Source: an uncultured Acidobacteriaceae bacterium (lineage in GTDB: Bacteria > Acidobacteriota > Terriglobia > Terriglobales > Acidobacteriaceae). From it: a stretch of 64,000 nucleotides of DNA. Below the pieces are notes generated by a model, which made no database searches, was not told where the DNA came from, and worked only from the letters and a program-made list of their open reading frames with translations. This document shows positions 1,295 through 58,875 of this stretch, in pieces (the first letter of the stretch is position 1; the number at the start of each line of letters is the position of its first letter). The DNA is taken from the NCBI GenBank assembly GCA_964437985.1, contig CAYTIL010000025.1:58669-122668 (forward strand), read 5' to 3'. Position numbers and translations under genes: made by a program.

Positions 1295-2551
1295 CTACTT
1301 CGCTCCGCATAATTCAGCGGCGGTCAGCGCGTAGATCTTGGTGATCTCCAGCAGCGTCTCGATGCGGACTTTCTCGCCTTCCTTGTCGCGCGGGCCGCTG
1401 GAAGGACCGTAGTTCACCGTGGGAACGCCGTAACGAGTGAGCACGGAGGCATCCGAGGACCAGAGCACGGTGTCGCGTTTGGGCGCTGCGCCGGTGATCC
1501 GGCGATGTTGTTTCTCGATGGCCTTCACCATCTCGTGGTCGGGAGCAATTTCGGCCCCGGGGACGGAAACGTAGGTCTCAAACTCCAGGCCGTAGCCGGG
1601 GAAACGCTTCTCCAGGTCAAGGAAAAGCGCCTTGAGTTCGTGACGCGCGTGGTTCATGGGCAGGGTGGGTGGAACGCGCACGTCAAGATAAAGGTCGGTG
1701 CGCTCGGGAGTACGGCTGGCGCGCCAAGGGTGTCCGCCGCGGATGCCGCCCAGGTTCACGAATCCCTGCTTGTTGCCGTAAGCGGTCTTGGCCTGCCAGG
1801 ACGGAATCCACTTGAGGATTTGCGCGATCACGTCGTGCATGCGGCGCAGCGAGTTCTCTGCTTCGCGGCCGGGGCCGAAGGCGGTGTGAACGTACAGCCC
1901 GCGCGTGGAGATGCGCACCCACAGCGAACCATAGTGGCCGAGGACGACTTGCATGTCCGTGGGTTCGCCCAGAATGCACATGTCAGGCACAGTGCCGTGA
2001 TTCACCAGGTAATGCGTGCCGCAGCCGTATCCGCGAAACTCCTTGCCGGTGAACTCACCCACTTGCGTCTTCTCGATTTCGCCGGCGACGGCGGCGATGA
2101 TCACGTCGCCTTCCAGCTTGACGCCGGCGGCCTGCAGCGCGCGCACCGCCTGCGTGTAGCAGACCAGCGCGCCCTTCATGTTGTAGATGCCGAGACCGTA
2201 GATCATGCCGTTCTTGACCACGGCGTGGGGCTTGTAGCCCAGCCCGGTGAGGAAAGGTTCGCGGCCGCTGTTGGAGGTATCCATGTGGCCGTTGAACATC
2301 AGGCAACGGCCGTTGCCTGAGCCGTTCAGCCGACCCACTACATTGGCGCGGCCTTCCTCCACTTCCTGCCATGCGACCTCCAGTCCCATCTGTTCGAAGG
2401 CGGCACGCATGTAGTTGGCCATCTCCAGTTCGGAGCCGGTGGGACTGGGGATGTTGACCACGTCGCAACACATCTCCACCAGAGCGCGCTCGTCAATGTG
2501 CGCGAGGATGCGGTCGGCGAGGGAGGACTTGGGTTTGGGGCGCTTGGACAT
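1295..2551 (-). CDS. M20 family peptidase (ArgE/DapE/acetylornithine deacetylase-like)
   Basis: 418 aa ORF with an M20 metal-binding core (…FNGHMDT…, …GEP(T/S)…), abutting the upstream M24 gene on the same strand. Confidence 0.85.
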   Translation of the reverse strand: MSKRPKPKSSLADRILAHIDERALVEMCCDVVNIPSPTGSELEMANYMRAAFEQMGLEVAWQEVEEGRANVVGRLNGSGNGRCLMFNGHMDTSNSGREPFLTGLGYKPHAVVKNGMIYGLGIYNMKGALVCYTQAVRALQAAGVKLEGDVIIAAVAGEIEKTQVGEFTGKEFRGYGCGTHYLVNHGTVPDMCILGEPTDMQVVLGHYGSLWVRISTRGLYVHTAFGPGREAENSLRRMHDVIAQILKWIPSWQAKTAYGNKQGFVNLGGIRGGHPWRASRTPERTDLYLDVRVPPTLPMNHARHELKALFLDLEKRFPGYGLEFETYVSVPGAEIAPDHEMVKAIEKQHRRITGAAPKRDTVLWSSDASVLTRYGVPTVNYGPSSGPRDKEGEKVRIETLLEITKIYALTAAELCGAK

Positions 2552-2593
2552 GGGCAGATGAGAATCTATATGAGGAGCAGCATTCCATCAACC

Positions 2594-2748
2594 GTCGTCA
2601 TCCTGAGCCCGCCGCAGGCGGGCGAAGGACCTTACGACCGCCGGCCGTGCCGTTGCCGTCCACAGGCAGAATGCTTCAGGCCCGTCATCCTGAGCCCGCC
2701 GCAGGCGGGCGAAGGACCTTACGACTGCCGGCCGTGCCGTTGCCGTCC
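2594..2748 (+). repeat. Two tandem copies (2594..2660, 2683..2748) of the family C element gtcatcctgagcccgccgcaggcgggcgaaggaccttacgac(y)gccggccgtgccgttgccgtcc
   Basis: Near-identical 66 nt units read directly, 89 nt apart, each with an internal hairpin gcccgcc-gcag-gcgggc. They sit immediately 3' of the GIY-YIG ORF, which ends at 2755. The ORF-track entries 2498..2908 and 2647..3090 are translations of these repeats. Confidence 0.8.
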
Positions 2749-2754
2749 GCAGGA

Positions 2755-3063
2755 TTACTTCTTGCGCCGCGCAACCGGTCGAACGTACCAGCCTGTACTG
2801 AGGTCACGCCACTTCGGGTTTACGGATTCGATCAGCGCGATCTTGCGCTCGCGGCGCCAGCCCTTGAGTTCCTTCTCGCGGTCAATGGCGCTCAGCATGC
2901 TGGCATAACGCTCGAAATAGACCAGCTTGTTCGTCTGGTACTTGGCGACGAAGCCCTTGGGCTCAAACTTGTGCTGCCAGACCCGCACCTCCAAATTGCC
3001 GGTGACGCCGAGGTAAAGCACGCGACGCTGGCTGGCCATGATGTAGGCGCAAGAGAACGCCAT
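2755..3063 (-). CDS. GIY-YIG nuclease family protein (small stand-alone YhbQ/UPF0213-like)
   Basis: 102 aa ORF. N-terminal CAYIMASQRRVLYLGVTGNLEVRVWQHK fits the GIY-(x10)-YIG/ LY.GvT.NL.rR..eH motif of the GIY-YIG superfamily. Confidence 0.8.
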   Translation of the reverse strand: MAFSCAYIMASQRRVLYLGVTGNLEVRVWQHKFEPKGFVAKYQTNKLVYFERYASMLSAIDREKELKGWRRERKIALIESVNPKWRDLSTGWYVRPVARRKK

Positions 3064-3100
3064 TGGGTGGTCCTTTCCACCGCATCGTGAGTCTCAACAG

Positions 3101-3157
3101 TCGTAAGATCCTTCGCTCGCTCCGTCGCTGCGCTCCGTCACGGCTCAGGATGACAAT
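3101..3157 (-). repeat. Family C element in inverted orientation (reverse complement ttgtcatcctgagccgtgacggagcgcagcgacggagcgagcgaaggatcttacga)
   Basis: It shares the conserved ends gtcatcctgagc ... cgaaggatcttacga with the copies at 2594/2683 and differs in the internal stem. It lies 40 nt upstream of the GIY-YIG start, so the gene is bracketed by inverted copies. Confidence 0.75.
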
Positions 3158-3177
3158 CGCCTGTGGAAGAGTGCTGT

Positions 3178-4359
3178 TCAGCTCAGCGTGCGGAAGTCGT
3201 CGGGGAAACTGCACAGCTTTTCGTTGCCGTCGCCGGTGATCCAGAAGTTGTCTTCCAGGCGCAGGCCGCCACCGCCTTGCCAGTAGATGCCGGGCTCGAT
3301 GGCCAGTACCATCCCTTTGCGAATCGTGCCGGTGCCGGCCTGGTGGGCGTAGGGAGGCTCGTGCGCGCGGGCGCCGACGCCGTGACACACCGGATGCGAA
3401 GGCTGGCCGGGATAGCCGCCCTCGGCAATGCGGGCGCGGATGAGGCGGTCGAGTTCGGGGAAGCTGGCGCCGTCGCGCGCGAAGGCCACGGCTTCGTTGA
3501 AGACTTTGAGCAGCAGGTCGAGCAACTGGTTGTACCGTGGCGTGAGCTTTCCCGGACACAAGTTTTTAGTGAGGTCGTTCCAGTAGCCGTCCACGCATAC
3601 CCAGATTTCAAACAGCGTGGGTTCGTTCTGCTGGATGGGGCGGTCGCCCGTGGCGGTGAAGGTTGCGATGCCGGGGCCGGACCACACCAAGGTGAAGGCG
3701 CGGGCCATCTCCACTTTGCCCTGGTAGCCGACGCCGACGCCGTGCACGTAGCCCTCAAACATCGCGCCCACTTCGCTTTCCTTCATGCCCACACGCATGT
3801 TCTGGCGAGTGTGCTCCATGGCCAGCGCCGCCAGTTCGTTGGCCAGGCGCATGCGCTCGATTTCCTGATCGGTCTTGATGGCTCGCGCCTCAATGAGCAA
3901 CGGCATGGCGTCCACTACCTGCCCGGCGACTTTCTCGAAAGCCTGGAAGTAAGGCTGGGTGTACACCGTGGGCTCGCCCACCATGCGGTCGGCGGCTTGC
4001 GAAGAGTTGGTGAGCTCGACGCCGACTTTGTCGGTGAGTCCGCGCTCCTTCAGCACCTGAAGCGCGAGGTCGAGCGCGCGCATGTTGGGCGGACGCGGGT
4101 CGCGCTCGTCGTAGCCTTTGAACAGGCGGATGTCGCGCGTCCAGGAGTTGCGCTCGGCGTCGCCAAGCTGCGGCTCAATGGCGATGAGTGTGGGCTCGCC
4201 TTCGCGCGGAAATACCACCGCATCGTATCCCTTCATGCACCAGTAGTTGGTGAGATAGAGGATGTTGTCGGGCGCGCGGCACACCATGGCCGCGAGGTCG
4301 TGCTGCTTCATCAGCGCGCGCACGCGGGAGAGTTTGGTTTCGTCCTTAGGCCACGGCAT
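3178..4359 (-). CDS. M24 family Xaa-Pro aminopeptidase/dipeptidase
   Basis: 393 aa ORF with an M24 catalytic domain (…HGVGVGYQG…, …GMVLAIEPGIY…). It is a second M24 paralog in the window. Confidence 0.85.
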   Translation of the reverse strand: MPWPKDETKLSRVRALMKQHDLAAMVCRAPDNILYLTNYWCMKGYDAVVFPREGEPTLIAIEPQLGDAERNSWTRDIRLFKGYDERDPRPPNMRALDLALQVLKERGLTDKVGVELTNSSQAADRMVGEPTVYTQPYFQAFEKVAGQVVDAMPLLIEARAIKTDQEIERMRLANELAALAMEHTRQNMRVGMKESEVGAMFEGYVHGVGVGYQGKVEMARAFTLVWSGPGIATFTATGDRPIQQNEPTLFEIWVCVDGYWNDLTKNLCPGKLTPRYNQLLDLLLKVFNEAVAFARDGASFPELDRLIRARIAEGGYPGQPSHPVCHGVGARAHEPPYAHQAGTGTIRKGMVLAIEPGIYWQGGGGLRLEDNFWITGDGNEKLCSFPDDFRTLS

Positions 4360-4363
4360 GATC

Positions 4364-4537
4364 AGGTGTCAGGTGTCGGGTGTCCGCGTAGTTTCAAGTT
4401 TCGAGCTTCACGTTTCAAGAGAAAAAGCAAAACCAAGATCCCTCGACTCGCCCGCCACGGCGGGCTTGCTCGGGATGACAATTACGAAGGTGACGTGCTG
4501 ACGACTGACAACTCACAACCGGCAACTGACAACTTTC
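4364..4537. repeat. Composite repeat block: family D (caggtgtcaggtgtcgggtgtc, 4364..4385), tttcaagtttcgag...tttcaagag, family C copy (4435..4481, inverted), family F ctgacgactgacaactcacaaccggcaactgacaac
   Basis: Read directly. The C copy has reverse complement ttgtcatcccgagcaagcccgccgtggcgggcgagtcgagggatctt. The block lies between the two minus-strand genes at 3178..4359 and 4538..5461. Confidence 0.7.
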
Positions 4538-8049: not shown

Positions 8050-8072
8050 GTAGAGACGCAGCATGCTGCGTC
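8050..8072. repeat. REP-like family A: gtagagacgcagcatgctgcgtc (GTAG head + palindrome)
   Basis: It contains the perfect palindrome gacgcagcatgctgcgtc. A related gagacgtggcaagcaacgtct lies at 8092..8112. Confidence 0.65.
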
Positions 8073-15126: not shown

Positions 15127-15136
15127 GTTGCCCCGC

Positions 15137-15163
15137 GTAGCCCGGCCGCCCTCGGCCGGGTAC
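15137..15163. repeat. REP-like family B: gtagcccggccgccctcggccgggtac
   Basis: GTAG head plus the palindrome cccggccg…cggccggg. It lies directly after the LLM stop and 6 nt before the next ORF. Confidence 0.65.
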
Positions 15164-16780: not shown

Positions 16781-16828
16781 GTAGAGACGTTGCTTGCAAC
16801 GTCTCGTTGCTGGCAACGTCTCGGCGAG
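16781..16828. repeat. REP-like family A doublet: gtagagacgttgcttgcaacgtctc + gttgctggcaacgtctcggcg
   Basis: The first unit is a perfect 10 bp stem (gagacgttgc/gcaacgtctc). The second is a related unit in opposite orientation. The ORF-track start 16794 of the next gene lies inside it. Confidence 0.6.
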
Positions 16829-22437: not shown

Positions 22438-23108
22438 GCCGGCGCATCGCGATTGTAGGCGGCACCGGGCCCGAAGGCCGCGGCCTGGCCGCGCGCTGGG
22501 CGCGCGCGGGAGACAGCGTCATCATTGGCTCGCGCGACGCCGAACGTGCCCGGCGCGCAGCGGAAGAGGTGGCGAAGCAAGCCGGCGCCTCGGGACGCGT
22601 GGAAGGCATGGCCAACGCCGACGCCGTGGCCGCCACCGACCTGGTGGTGCTCACGGTTCCCTTCTCCGCACACGCCGAAACGCTCCAACAACTGAAGACT
22701 GCGTTCCGGCCTGGGACGATTCTCCTGGATGCCACCGTGCCGCTGGCGGCGTCGGTAGGCGGACGCGCCACGCGCACCCTGGGGGTGTGGCAGGGTTCGG
22801 CTGCGGAACAAGCGGCGGAACTGGTTCCGGAAGGCGTCAAAGTGGTGGCCGCGTTCCAGAACGTCTCCCACGAATGGCTGCACGGTGAAGGTGTGGTGGA
22901 CTGCGACGTCATCGTGTGCAGCGACGACGCTGCCGCCCGCCAGTTGGGGCGCGCGCTGGCGGAGAAAATCCCCGGCGTGCGCGGCGTGGACGGCGGCCGC
23001 CTGGAGAACGCCCGCATCGTGGAGCAGTTGACCGCGCTGCTCATCGGCATCAACCTGCGCTACAAGGCCCACGCGGCCGGCCTGAGGATCACGGGCCTGC
23101 CCCTGTAG
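22434..23108 (+). CDS. npdG: NADPH-dependent F420 reductase
   Basis: Rossmann motif IAIVGGTGPEG and NpdG/Fno-type body. The GTG start overlaps the cofH stop and an RBS aaggag lies 5 nt upstream. The ORF track starts at 22428. Confidence 0.8.
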   Translation: MSRRIAIVGGTGPEGRGLAARWARAGDSVIIGSRDAERARRAAEEVAKQAGASGRVEGMANADAVAATDLVVLTVPFSAHAETLQQLKTAFRPGTILLDATVPLAASVGGRATRTLGVWQGSAAEQAAELVPEGVKVVAAFQNVSHEWLHGEGVVDCDVIVCSDDAAARQLGRALAEKIPGVRGVDGGRLENARIVEQLTALLIGINLRYKAHAAGLRITGLPL

Positions 23109-23190
23109 AGACGCAGCGTGCTGCGTCTCCTTTCCTGCGTCTCCCTTCTTACTTGCACCTCGCCGAGACGCCGCCAGCTACGTCTCTACC
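23104..23190. repeat. REPIN-like pair of family A REPs in inverted orientation (gtagagacgcagcgtgctgcgtctc ... gagacgccgccagctacgtctctac)
   Basis: Two GTAG-headed palindromic units facing each other about 35 nt apart, immediately after the npdG stop. Confidence 0.65.
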
Positions 23191-23691: not shown

Positions 23692-23708
23692 GTTCCTTGC
23701 TGCAAGGT

Positions 23709-23785
23709 GTAGCCCGGCCGCCCCCGGCCGGGCCGCACCATCCTGCCGGTGTAAGGCCGTGTGGGGCCGGGTCTGCGACCCGGCC
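23709..23785. repeat. REP-like family B (gtagcccggccgcccccggccgggc, 23709..23733) plus a second hairpin ggccgggtctgcgacccggcc (23765..23785)
   Basis: Read directly. It lies between the ACT gene stop and the convergent minus-strand gene that ends at 23804. Confidence 0.65.
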
Positions 23786-25091: not shown

Positions 25092-25127
25092 CGGCCTTTT
25101 GCCTTTTTTACTTTTTACTTTTGCCTT

Positions 25128-25886
25128 TCACTTCCTGCCCCATGGCATCACAAACGCCTTGAACCACTCGGCGGCGGCGGTGAGCTTGTATTGTTGGATG
25201 GCGCCGGCCGGGTCCACGTGTTTGGGGCAGACGCGGGTGCACTCACCCACGAACGTGCAACCCCAGATGCCCTCATGGTCGCTCAGTTCCTCCAGGCGTT
25301 CGTGGGCGCCCTGGTCGCGCGAATCCTTGTTATAACGCTGCGCCAGCGCCAGCGCCGCCGGCCCGATGAATTGCGCGTCCAGCCCGACGACCGGACACGC
25401 GGAGTAGCACAGCATGCAGTTGATGCACATGGAGAACTGCTTGTAGGTCTCGAGCTGCTCGGGCGTCTGCAGGTATTCGCCTTCGGCCAGCGGTTTCTCC
25501 TGCTTGCGGATCAGCCACGGCTTGGCCCGGCGGAGCTTGGAGACGAAGTCGGCAACATCAGTCACCAGATCGCGAACCACGGGGAAGAAGCGCAGGGGCT
25601 CCACGCGCACCACGTTCTTCTTCTGGTAGTGAGAGAGAAAGGTGGCGCAGGTGAGCTTGGGCTCGCCGTCCACCATCATGCCGCAGGATCCGCAGATGCC
25701 CATGCGGCACGACCAGCGGTAGGAAAGCGTGCCATCGACGCGGTCTTTGATGTAGTTGAGTGCGTCCAGCACCACCCATTCTTTGCGATAGGGAACCTCG
25801 AAGCGCTCAAAGCGCGGTTCGGCGTCGCGCTCCGGTGAGTAGCGCGCGATTTCGACCAGGATGGTATCGGAAGTTCGGACGGGCAT
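25128..25886 (-). CDS. frdB: Succinate dehydrogenase/fumarate reductase iron-sulfur subunit
   Basis: It has a 2Fe-2S region ([15 protein letters not shown]) and 4Fe-4S/3Fe-4S regions ([25 protein letters not shown]). The start was taken at the ATG at 25886 ([19 protein letters not shown]) rather than the TTG-extended track start 25910. Confidence 0.9.
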
Positions 25887-26164: not shown

Positions 26165-27922
26165 TCAAGCTTCCTTGCTCTGCTGCCCGTACACTCGCTC
26201 CCCCGGAGGCCAGCGCGTAATGGTGACCGGCAGATACTCGACGCGTGCCGAGCCGTCGGCATTGCGGTAAACCAGCGAGTGCGTCAAGTAATTGGCGTCG
26301 TCGCGCTTCGGAAAATCGGTACGCTGATGGGCGCCGCGGGATTCCTTGCGCTCCAGCGCGCTGCGGACAATGCACTCCGCCACGTCCAGCATGAACCCCA
26401 GCTCCAGCGCTGCTGGGAGTTCGGTGTTGAAGGTGCGGCTGGCGTCGTCGAGCATCACGTTGTGGTAGCGCTGCTGGAGTTCGCTGAGCGTCGCCGCCGC
26501 CTCGGCCAGGGAACTCCCGGTGCGGTAGATGCCCGCGCCCTGCTCGAGGGCTGACTGCATCTCTTCGCGAAGGGTGGCGATACGCTCCTTGCCTCCCTGC
26601 TTGAACAGATACTCCTGCTCGAGGCGCCGCTTCTCGTCATTGGCCTGGGCCTCGATGTGCGCTCCATGCCCCTGCTGCTCGGAAGCAAACTGCGCGGCGG
26701 CGCGGCCGGCCCGGGCGCCGAAGACCAGCAGCTCGGGCAGCGAGTTCGACCCCAGGCGGTTGGCACCGTTGATGGAGACGCACGCCACCTCGCCCGCAGC
26801 ATAAAGCCCGGCCAGCGGCGTGGCCCCGTGGATGTCGGTGGAAACGCCGCCCATCATGTAATGCGCTACCGGCCGCACCGGGATGAGCTCGCGCACCGGA
26901 TCAATGTTCTGGTACTTCAGGCAGAGTTCGCGGACGAACGGCAGCTTGGCGTTGATGAGCTTTTCGCCCAAATGGCGCAGGTCCAGGTGGACCACGGGGC
27001 CGTAGGGGGTCTCGATGGTGCGGCCCTTCTCCTGCTCTTTGACGAAGGCCTGCGACAAGCGATCGCGCGGGCCCAGTTCCATGGAGCGCAGCACCGGCGT
27101 GGGCTGCGGCGTGCCCAGGTTGTAATCCTGCAGGTAGCGGTAGCCGTCTTTGTTGAGCATGTAGCCGCCTTCGGCGCGCGCGGCTTCGGTAATCAGGATT
27201 CCGGTGAACGGCAGGCCGGTGGGATGGTACTGCACGAACTCCATGTCTTTGAGCGGAGCGCCGGCACGATAGGCCAGCGCCATGCCGTCGCCGTTCTTGA
27301 TGTTGGCGTTGGTGGTGAAGGGAAACACTTTTCCGCAACCGCCGGTGCACAGGATGACGGACTTGGCGGTGATGGCCGCGATGCGTCCGGTAGCAATCTC
27401 AATGGCCACCACGCCCTGCACGCGTCCCTCGTCGATCAGAAGGCGGGTGGCGAACCACTCGTCGTAGCGGGCGATGGCGTTGTATTTGAGCGAGGTCTGA
27501 AACAGCGTGTGCAGCATGTGGAAGCCGGTCTTGTCGGCGGCGAACCAGGTGCGCATCTTCTTCATGCCGCCAAAAGCGCGCACCGCGATGTGGCCGTCGG
27601 GGTCGCGGCTCCACGGACATCCCCAGTGCTCGAGCTGCACCATTTCCTCCGGCGCCTCGCGACAGAAGGCTTCCACCGCGTCCTGGTCCGGGAGCCAGTC
27701 GCCGCCGGAGATGGTGTCGTAGCAGTGGTCGTCGAGCGAGTCGTCGGGCTTGACCACCGCAGCCGCGCCGCCTTCCGCCGATACCGTGTGGCTGCGCATG
27801 GGATAGACCTTCGACACCACGGCCACGCTGAGCTTGGGATTCACTTCGGCCACGGCAATGGCAGCGCGCAGGCCCGCGCCTCCGCCGCCAATCAGGAGTA
27901 CGTCGTGGGAGGAAATGTCCAT
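26165..27922 (-). CDS. frdA: Succinate dehydrogenase/fumarate reductase flavoprotein subunit
   Basis: FAD motif [17 protein letters not shown], the covalent-FAD His region ([10 protein letters not shown]), and the active-site HPTG and R…H…R regions. Confidence 0.9.
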
Positions 27923-36663: not shown

Positions 36664-36840
36664 CATTGACGATTGCCAAGTGACGATGGGCGAGCAGTCT
36701 TGTGCCGCGTGCCTAAGGGTAGACGCGGCACGTAAGGTCCTTCGTCCGCCTGCGGCGGACTCGGGATGACGACGTGGAAGGGAGCACGCGAGAAATGCAA
36801 TCGTCAATCGTCAATGATGAAGTCGTCAATTTGACGAGAG
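36664..36840. repeat. Composite repeat block: family E (cattgacgattgccaagtgacgatgg), hairpin gtgccgcgt-gcctaagggtag-acgcggcac, family C copy (36729..36773, inverted), family E (caatcgtcaatcgtcaatgatgaagtcgtcaatttgacga)
   Basis: Read directly. The C copy has reverse complement gtcgtcatcccgagtccgccgcaggcggacgaaggaccttacgtg. This is almost identical, hairpin included, to the copies flanking the GIY-YIG gene 34 kb away. Confidence 0.7.
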
Positions 36841-39292: not shown

Positions 39293-39480
39293 GTGACGAT
39301 TGCAGATTGGCGATTGCAAATTGATGATTGCAAATTGCGCGCGCGGTGGCAGGACTTGTATCAGGGCACGGCTTCAGCCGCGTCGAAAAGGTTGTTTTCG
39401 GACATTGTCATCCCGAGCGAGTCCGACCGAGCCGCCCGCGCAGCGGGCGACGTAGGGAGGACGAGTCGAGGGATCTTGGT
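39293..39480. repeat. Family E variant array (gtgacgattgcagattggcgattgcaaattgatgattgcaaattg, 39293..39337) followed by a family C copy (39406..39480, direct orientation)
   Basis: The C copy is gtcatcccgagcgagtccgaccgagccgcccgcgcagcgggcgacgtagggaggacgagtcgagggatcttgg. The block lies upstream of the hybrid kinase gene. Confidence 0.65.
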
Positions 39481-44721: not shown

Positions 44722-44789
44722 GAGCGCCTCATTCTAATACGGCAGCGCCGGTGTCTCGCTCAGTGTGGAAGCGGGCGGCCTTGTCCGCG

Positions 44790-54726: not shown

Positions 54727-54838
54727 AGCGATCCGAGGGCGAGTCGAGGAAGCTCTACCCCAAACACAGATGCCCGAGGTAGGGGTTCCTCGACTCGCGC
54801 TTCCTCACTGCGTTCGGTCGCGCTCGCTCGGAATCACA
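54727..54838. repeat. Degenerate family C pair: a partial direct copy (…atccgagggcgagtcgaggaag) and a full inverted copy (reverse complement ttgtgattccgagcgagcgcgaccgaacgcagtgaggaagcgcgagtcgaggaacc)
   Basis: The 13 bp perfect stem gcgagtcgaggaa/ttcctcgactcgc joins the two copies. The block lies between the radical SAM start and the yggX stop. Confidence 0.55.
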
Positions 54839-57913: not shown

Positions 57914-57980
57914 CCCTGGGACACCTCGGCGAACCGTAACTCTATGCGGGGGTGACGAGGAAGTCAATATTCAGGGCTGT

Positions 57981-58008
57981 GTAGCCCGGCCGCCCCCGGC
58001 CGGGCTAG
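57981..58008. repeat. REP-like family B: gtagcccggccgcccccggccgggctag
   Basis: Third copy of the GTAG + cccggccg/cggccggg palindrome, in the divergent region between nfeD and the cysteine-dioxygenase-like gene. Confidence 0.65.
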
Positions 58009-58645: not shown

Positions 58646-58817
58646 TTCACCACGGAGACACGGAGGCACGGAGAACAGCAAGTCAAAAATCAAAAGGCAA
58701 AAGGGAAAAGGGAAAAGGCAACAAGCCGCTGGCAATACGCCATGAACGAGGCAAGAGGTCTTCTCTTTTGCCTTTTGATTTTTTACTCTTGCCTTCTCCG
58801 TGCCTCCGTGCCTCCGT
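58646..58817. repeat. Long imperfect inverted repeat (~55 nt arms) around a ~57 nt centre
   Basis: Left arm ttcaccacggagacacggaggcacggagaacagcaagtcaaaaatcaaaaggcaaaaggg. The right arm reverse complement is attcaccacggaggcacggagaaggcaagagtaaaaaatcaaaaggcaaaagag. It is A-rich, which is atypical for this genome, and lies between the CDO-like gene and the ABC ATPase gene. Confidence 0.65.
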
Positions 58818-58875
58818 GGTGAATCGTGACTCGCGAACTTTTGCCCCCGTTTCTGCGTAGTACCATCAGATAGCT

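Follow-up and report, generated by a model that had tools for sequence, protein, structure and literature searches.

A 64-kb stretch of DNA from an uncultured Acidobacteriaceae bacterium (64,000 nucleotides, referred to here as the window) very probably carries a member of the Ssn/SRM system: a 102-amino-acid (aa) nuclease of the Ssn family, encoded by a gene that we call ssn, together with GC-rich elements on both sides of it that would be its cognate Ssn-related motifs (SRMs). The original prediction for this DNA described a GIY-YIG nuclease gene bracketed by inverted copies of a repeat. This architecture was confirmed, with two tandem copies 3′ of the gene and one inverted copy 5′ of it. 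The same prediction held that no repeat family had been firmly linked to stand-alone GIY-YIG proteins. That statement is outdated, and the reading of the association as unknown is corrected here: a gene-repeat association of this kind is not new, having been published in 2025 for Ssn and its NTS and SRM repeats (Chenal et al. 2025, Nat Commun 16:2388, PMC11893778).

In that study, the Neisseria meningitidis protein SsnA (94 aa; CDD cd10448) consists of a single GIY-YIG domain, and Ssn homologs across bacteria are flanked by hairpin repeats, either NTS (CGTCATTCCCGCGMAVGCGGGAATCYRG) or, more broadly, SRMs, which are described as hairpin-forming repeats of 20-50 nt. SsnA binds the repeat solely as single-stranded DNA (ssDNA) and cuts a few nucleotides upstream of it; the enzyme is inactive on duplex DNA, on RNA, and on the reverse strand, and RNA of the same sequence is neither bound nor cut. 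The three bases before the palindrome weigh most for cleavage, and the C after the palindrome weighs most for binding. In Neisseria, SsnA reduces transformation by NTS-bearing DNA. The authors likened the NTS-ssnA-NTS layout to an insertion sequence and to REP/RAYT, and suggested, purely as a hypothesis, that a mobile element had been domesticated (PMC11893778).

The product of the 102-aa open reading frame (ORF) was matched by Pfam PF01541 (GIY-YIG) over residues 5-74 (E=1.9e-8). GIY-YIG is its sole Pfam domain, and its size falls within the ~90-105 aa given as a criterion for Ssn. The AlphaFold model of the protein (pLDDT, 86.6) has a beta-beta-alpha-alpha-beta-alpha-alpha arrangement and the GIY-YIG fold. 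With this model, a fold search returned 1zg2 (UPF0213 BH0048) at the top, followed by Slx1 and the N-terminal domain of UvrC (UvrC-N), and a PDB sequence search with the protein returned nothing at E≤1. Because the fold search gave generic GIY-YIG domains only and the sequence search gave none, we take it that no Ssn structure has been solved. A search of NCBIfam matched no family, and a search of the phage collection gave no homolog. Across an alignment of 35 homologs, Y17 and E63 are invariant and Y7 is nearly invariant. A family profile search found one gene of this family in the window. A scan of positions 2450-3300 for promoters and terminators found nothing.

Assignment to the Ssn family is based on comparison with a Neisseria protein. 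A tblastn search of a plasmid collection with the window protein identified two Neisseria gonorrhoeae chromosomes of ~2.17 Mb that are filed there as plasmids (PLSDB record NZ_CP119140.1 [L081]); the comparison with SsnA was possible because these chromosomes stood in that collection. The gonococcal locus contains a 94-aa ORF with Y6, Y17, and E64, surrounded by canonical NTS copies. From its length, these three residues, and the NTS flanks, rather than from an accession in the paper, we infer that this ORF is the SsnA ortholog. The tblastn match of the window protein to the chromosome had an E value of 1e-14, where Chenal et al. used E<1e-10. With BLASTP, the window protein and the SsnA ortholog were 47% identical over 86 residues (E=4e-24), and Y7, Y17, and E63 of the window protein aligned with gonococcal Y6, Y17, and E64, the positions that were mutated in the N. 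meningitidis enzyme. A profile built from the 35 homologs matched the SsnA ortholog with E=9e-33, whereas it matched Escherichia coli YhbQ (UPF0213) with E=2.6e-8 and 20% identity over the core only; BLASTP of the window protein against YhbQ aligned 26 residues (E=2e-4). UPF0213/YhbQ proteins are likewise small, stand-alone GIY-YIG proteins of ~100 aa with a related fold, 1zg2 being the top structural match, but YhbQ lacks the C-terminal signature of the window family, REKxLKGWxRxxKxxLIExxNPxWxDL. The UPF0213/YhbQ-like label given originally to the window protein is rejected on the basis of this weak, core-limited similarity against the strong match to the SsnA ortholog, and we place the protein in the Ssn family instead. 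Two of the homologs (P0045 and P0093 in alignment A1) carry extra residues at the C terminus, for example DPSSLRSSG and DPSTPLRSAQNDKG, which are the antisense SRM translated by read-through, the gene calls running into the repeat.

The elements around the gene are organized as two arms (Table 1). In the upstream arm, the head GTCATCCTGAGC occupies positions 3143-3154 and the tail CGAAGGATCTTACGA occupies positions 3101-3115, both on the minus strand, and the repeat lies 37 nt upstream of the ATG. Downstream, the two tandem units (2596-2666 and 2683-2753) are direct copies with 97% identity, each of which holds the element GTCATCCTGAGC-CCGCCGCAGGCGG-GCGAAGGACCTTACGAC; the end of the proximal unit is 2 nt from the stop codon. 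Upstream and downstream arms have the 12-nt head and ~19 nt of tail (GCGAAGGAyCTTACGACTG) in common but carry different central hairpins. In the window, the head box has 7 matches versus 0.74 expected, a number reached in 0 of 100 shuffles, and the tail box has 4 matches versus 0.29 expected. A fuzzy head-plus-tail census of the 64 kb yielded 7 copies, 3 flanking ssn and 4 solo. Solo copies were part of the original prediction; they exist, but there are four of them and not five. A head-only match at 27347-27358, without a tail, is probably due to chance. At least 3 of the 4 solo copies are intergenic, they occur roughly once per 10 kb in the window, and they lie in either orientation with respect to neighboring genes.

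Table 1. Positions of the ssn gene and of SRM-like elements in the window
Feature	Position	Strand	Description
ssn gene	2755..3063	-	Single-domain GIY-YIG nuclease, 102 aa, very probably Ssn family
Upstream SRM-like hairpin repeat, sense to ssn	3101..3157	-	Head GTCATCCTGAGC, degenerate centre, tail GCGAAGGATCTTACGAC
Leader between upstream repeat and ATG	3064..3100	-	TGTTGAGACTCACGATGCGGTGGAAAGGACCACCCA; conserved with the cassette in related genomes (alignments A3, A4)
Proximal downstream repeat, antisense to ssn	2683..2753	+	SRM core 2684-2727 plus spacer; repeat family D4
Distal downstream repeat	2596..2666	+	Tandem duplicate of the proximal unit, 87-nt period; SRM core 2597-2640
Solo repeat, subtype 2	4437..4479	-	GTCATCCCGAGC...GTCGAGGGATCTTGGTTTT; ApbA-M24 spacer
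Solo repeat, gene-flanking subtype	36736..36770	-	93% identical over 44 nt; intergenic; I1/I2
Solo repeat, subtype 2, long centre	39407..39475	+	Intergenic; I15
Divergent solo repeat, subtype 3	54784..54837	-	GTGATTCCGAGC...GTCGAGGAACCCCTACC; resembles repeats around the L092 Ssn gene

The window elements have the layout CGTCAT-CC..GG-AyC in 6 clear copies; the copy at 54784-54837 has GTGAT, not GTCAT. Three features are common to the window repeat and NTS (CGTCATTCCCGCG..GCGGGAATC), namely the CGTCAT head, the ATCC/GGAT stem that closes the palindrome, and the C that follows it. Because these features are shared, we file the locus as Ssn/SRM with a long-hairpin variant of the SRM. Folded as ssDNA, the proximal copy (2683..2753) forms a hairpin of -12.1 kcal/mol (z=-2.6) and the distal copy (2596..2666) forms one of -14.6 kcal/mol (z=-3.7), and the hairpins of both tandem copies carry a GA/GA internal loop. 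Inspection of the CUGAGC/GCGAAG motif led us to reject a hammerhead ribozyme and a kink-turn, as the motif lacks the CUGANGA/GAAA core and is a tandem G-A pair within a continuous stem. By their tails (CTTACG, GTCGAGGGATCTTGGTTTT, and GTCGAGGAACCCCTACC), the repeats in the window fall into three subtypes, compared to one ssn gene. There may be extra ssn paralogs of other specificity elsewhere in the genome, or one enzyme may tolerate several subtypes.

We determined the distribution of the repeat around 80 loci that encode relatives of the window protein, on contigs taken from one genome per species, mostly from Acidobacteriota with some from Chloroflexota, Verrucomicrobiota, Binatia, and other groups. 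Within 250 nt of the gene, the density is 3.57 per kb for the sense repeat on the upstream side and 3.15 per kb for the antisense repeat on the downstream side, whereas the background in the 10-kb flanks is ~0.04 per kb. Beside the gene the repeat is enriched ~80-fold, and this enrichment is specific for orientation. The original prediction had tied the repeat to the GIY-YIG gene, and this enrichment, with its fixed orientation across the 80 loci, supports it. Solo intergenic copies exist, roughly 1 per 10 kb in the window, as would be expected if a generic REP-like intergenic repeat stood beside a nuclease gene by chance. However, that explanation is refuted by an orientation-specific enrichment that extends over several phyla, and the same association has been reported independently of our data (PMC11893778); we give it practically no credence.

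The loci also define the element more closely. At most of them, the best inverted repeat between the two flanks begins 1 to 3 nt before GTCAT, giving a sharp outer edge, and continues 10-15 nt beyond the GGATC box into a lineage-specific tail (such as CTGCGGTTGC, CTTACGAC, or CCCTAC). From locus to locus, the outer stem changes with Watson-Crick compensation and takes at least 7 forms, among them ATCCT/AGGAT, ATTCT/AGAAT, ATCCC/GGGAT, ATGCT/AGCAT, ATTCC/GGAAT, and ATTTC/GAAAT. Similarity between the centres of two arms is 0.62 for arms of the same locus versus 0.45 for arms of different loci (0 of 2,000 permutations), and it is ≥0.9 in 8 of 45 loci; the likeness within a locus may be explained by shared genome background. 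With 8 of 45 loci at this level and a possible effect of background, we do not claim selection for arm-to-arm pairing. When Ssn protein identity was set against SRM tail class, the values were 74.7% against 59.5%, which would fit coevolution of enzyme and repeat and are confounded by phylogeny.

Such a covarying hairpin could instead act as RNA, as structured elements of the 5′- and 3′-untranslated regions (UTRs) or as a long-range stem between them, regulating the ssn mRNA or being processed with it. The covariation, the tandem G-A motif, the presumed location of the arms in the 5′ and 3′ UTRs, and their mutual complementarity are all in keeping with this. The covariation fits an ssDNA hairpin equally well, however, and solo copies lie in either orientation with respect to neighboring genes. 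There is no terminator-like T-run, and Rfam gave no match over the window at gathering thresholds nor over positions 2500-3250 at E≤10. Moreover, the characterized SsnA is inactive on RNA of this sequence and does not bind it (PMC11893778), which also contradicts, for the characterized homolog, an earlier suggestion that the nuclease processes a structured RNA. We consider a role as RNA very unlikely, and regard the elements as cognate SRMs.

We compared orthologous sites for presence or absence of the cassette (the ssn gene with its flanking SRMs). Site A is the locus of the window, with the order ApbA, M24 peptidase, [ssn], M20 peptidase, M24 peptidase. It is occupied in four genomes (the window, L083, L086, and the more distant L087/L088), and it is empty in two close relatives, L084 and L085, in which the M20 protein has 90-92% identity to that of the window. 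Each empty site has the same flanks on either side, with one sense SRM left between them, and L084 also retains a leader-like stretch. In L083, the order is SRM (sense), leader, gene, SRM (antisense), SRM (sense); recombination between the two direct SRMs of an L083-type locus would yield exactly the structure of the empty site. Two losses are more parsimonious than four gains at site A, because the genomes that lack the cassette there fall among genomes that have it, and the outgroup has it too.

Site B lies between a gene for a DsbA-like thioredoxin and a 75-aa ORF that is followed by ARPP-1. In GCA_975097825.1, site A is empty and the same cassette is present at site B (L082); it encodes a protein with 84-86% identity to those of the site A copies and shares their SRM and leader. 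This cassette sits within a hairpin of short-period palindromic runs, a different kind of repeat that is described below. Site B is empty and free of SRMs in L089, L090, and L091, and L090 is from GCA_973950765.1, a genome with an occupied site A. A different Ssn lineage, encoded on the opposite strand and accompanied by its own SRM subtype, is found at site B of L092. Elsewhere, a single metagenome-assembled genome contains two paralogous units (L002 and L005) of ~630 nt with 93% identity and unrelated flanks; the unit runs ~60 nt past the right repeat. Solo repeats are polymorphic as well, since the orthologous spacer of L083, L084, L086, and L087 lacks the copy that lies at 4437-4479 of the window. 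We conclude that the cassette and solo SRMs are gained and lost at orthologous sites. A repeat with neither an association with the gene nor insertion polymorphism would, according to the original prediction, have been a generic one; the comparison of orthologous loci that it proposed instead revealed presence/absence polymorphism of both the cassette and the solo repeat.

The repeats at this locus have also been rearranged repeatedly. The distal downstream SRM is a tandem direct antisense copy in the window (2596-2753), and in L083 (2200-2330) and L082 (4380-4560) it has the sense orientation, stands head-to-head with the proximal copy, and is followed by a duplicate leader. Several rearrangement junctions fall at the SRM head, the position at which Ssn would be predicted to cut; one such junction, seen in both the window and L086, joins an antisense head to the tail of a sense copy that has been lost. 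As a sign of cutting by Ssn, these junctions are suggestive only. The cassette moves or is lost at these sites, and catalysis of that movement by Ssn is hypothetical.

These patterns could be attributed to a cut-and-paste or copy-and-paste DNA transposon with a GIY-YIG transposase, the repeats being its terminal inverted repeats (TIRs) and the solo copies derivatives resembling miniature inverted-repeat transposable elements (MITEs). The original prediction of a minimal DNA transposon was of this type. The inverted repeats with a sharp outer edge and the insertion polymorphism, which includes reciprocal occupancy of two sites, paralogs with unrelated flanks, and a polymorphic solo SRM, speak for that explanation. 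In contrast, the target-site duplications that were to be looked for were not recognizable at the boundaries of the L002/L005 paralogs or at sites A and B, with the boundaries at site B being fuzzy. The paralogous unit overruns its right repeat, the solo copies are single hairpins rather than repeat pairs, and host-gene identities favor losses at site A. The repeat retained at empty site A is expected from direct-repeat recombination and not from excision. No recognized transposase (DDE, HUH, or serine or tyrosine recombinase) is present, Pfam showing GIY-YIG alone. To our knowledge, GIY-YIG nucleases hydrolyze DNA and are not known to catalyze strand transfer. A transposon of this kind is improbable; what stands of the original interpretation is the association of the repeat with the gene and the polymorphism.

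The mechanism that we propose for the Ssn/SRM cassette is modeled on the characterized Neisseria and Wolbachia enzymes; ssDNA cleavage by the acidobacterial enzyme is expected by analogy with them. When the SRM-bearing strand becomes single stranded, the element would fold into a hairpin. Ssn would bind this hairpin along with the GTC head on its 5′ side and the C directly 3′ of the palindrome, and would cut a few nucleotides 5′ of the head, with no action on duplex DNA, RNA, or the complementary strand. Since one copy is sense and upstream and the other is antisense and downstream, the predicted cuts lie just outside the cassette, on opposite strands. Breaks might arise whenever the strands are exposed, during replication or in incoming ssDNA, and Ssn-made breaks combined with host recombination could lead to spread of SRMs, gain or loss of the cassette, and local rearrangement. 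For the host, the system could limit recombination with incoming DNA as in Neisseria, or it could be maintained in a purely selfish manner.

Several observations weigh against placing the locus in the Ssn/SRM system. The published SRM pattern, HGTCWYN(0-2)YYVSBRHN(0-5)WNVSBRGN(0-2)RNCYNB, matches 9 NTS copies in the Neisseria locus and 0 of the window elements. In the window it has a single match (44752-44783), which does not coincide with any of the elements and is no more than chance would give (0.62 expected). This pattern is a search tool with a 5-nt loop limit, and the window elements escape it because their hairpin is longer than it allows: the window hairpin measures 35-70 nt, its GA/GA internal loop being conserved and its centre variable. 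In addition, the upstream copy folds no better than shuffled sequence as ssDNA (z=+1.16). The Neisseria comparison protein is the N. gonorrhoeae ORF, whose identity as SsnA is itself deduced, and the role in Neisseria, limiting natural transformation, may not apply here. We nevertheless hold the assignment to Ssn/SRM to be very probable.

A further possibility is that the cassette is an autonomous mobile element of a new mechanistic kind, in which the GIY-YIG nuclease would nick the hairpin-forming repeats, as ssDNA, just outside both ends and so allow host repair or replication to mobilize the cassette and solo hairpins. Such an element would be a non-HUH counterpart of REP/RAYT or IS200/IS605, and it was only speculated on in the 2025 paper. 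The reciprocal occupancy of two sites, the two Ssn lineages that entered one spacer independently, the polymorphic solo SRM, and the junctions at SRM heads fit this proposal, which we put forward tentatively, as somewhat less than an even prospect.

With the locus placed in the Ssn/SRM system, the range of this family of ssDNA-specific nucleases comes to include soil Acidobacteriota. The longer recognition hairpin becomes a candidate new specificity for ssDNA tools, and the published SRM search pattern is seen to underdetect the family. The comparisons of orthologous sites described above are the first concrete evidence, purely computational, for gain and loss of a repeat-gene-repeat cassette and of solo repeats, which was a hypothesis in the original paper.

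The window contains other repeats as well. Short-period palindromic runs (such as CAGTTGCCAGT..., CTTGAAACTTGAAAC, and TTTGCATTTTGAATTTTGC) are another kind of intergenic repeat, located at 40-165, 4380-4430, 25098-25140, and 58646-58823 of the window and also at L084:4758-4860, L085:1601-1713, and L087:4764-4852; they are polymorphic for presence/absence. The M20-M24 spacer, for example, is 1 nt long in the window, L083, and L086 and consists of 90-115 nt of palindromic runs in L084, L085, and L087. A GC-rich palindrome, GTGTAGCCCGGCCGCCCCCGGCCGGGC (family D8), has 3 copies (15135-15161, 23707-23733, and 57979-58005) and belongs to a hairpin family unrelated to SRM. The short hairpin GTAGAGACGCAGCATGCTGCGTC (family D16), with a conserved GTAGAGAC head, also has 3 copies (8050-8072, 16781-16803, and 23105-23127).

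Among known systems, Ssn with NTS/SRM is closest to the window locus. Both have a single-domain GIY-YIG protein of ~100 aa, with 47% identity between them and the catalytic Tyr/Tyr/Glu kept; both have hairpin repeats on each side of the gene, built from a GTCAT head, a palindrome, and a following C; and both have solo intergenic copies that are dispersed. They differ in that the window comes from a soil acidobacterium (Terriglobales) for which natural competence is not known, and in that the window family is strictly sense upstream and antisense downstream, whereas the surroundings of the Neisseria gene are mixed. REP/BIME repeats with RAYT also combine a nuclease gene lying between inverted hairpin repeats that are recognized as ssDNA with many solo or clustered intergenic copies, an analogy drawn in PMC11893778. 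However, RAYT is an HUH/Y1 transposase that acts through a covalent intermediate, and the window protein is a GIY-YIG hydrolase without the HUH Y1 domain. IS200/IS605 elements similarly show ssDNA-dependent recognition of hairpins and no target-site duplication, but, unlike the window locus, their ends are not inverted repeats, both cuts are on one strand, and TnpA is an HUH enzyme. GIY-YIG homing endonucleases, free-standing or intron-encoded (I-TevI and the T4 Seg proteins), have the same catalytic core, and a spread that relies on host break-induced repair would be plausible. These enzymes carry their DNA-binding function on a separate domain, cleave double-stranded DNA of the empty allele, and reside in phages or introns, whereas the window protein consists of the catalytic domain only.

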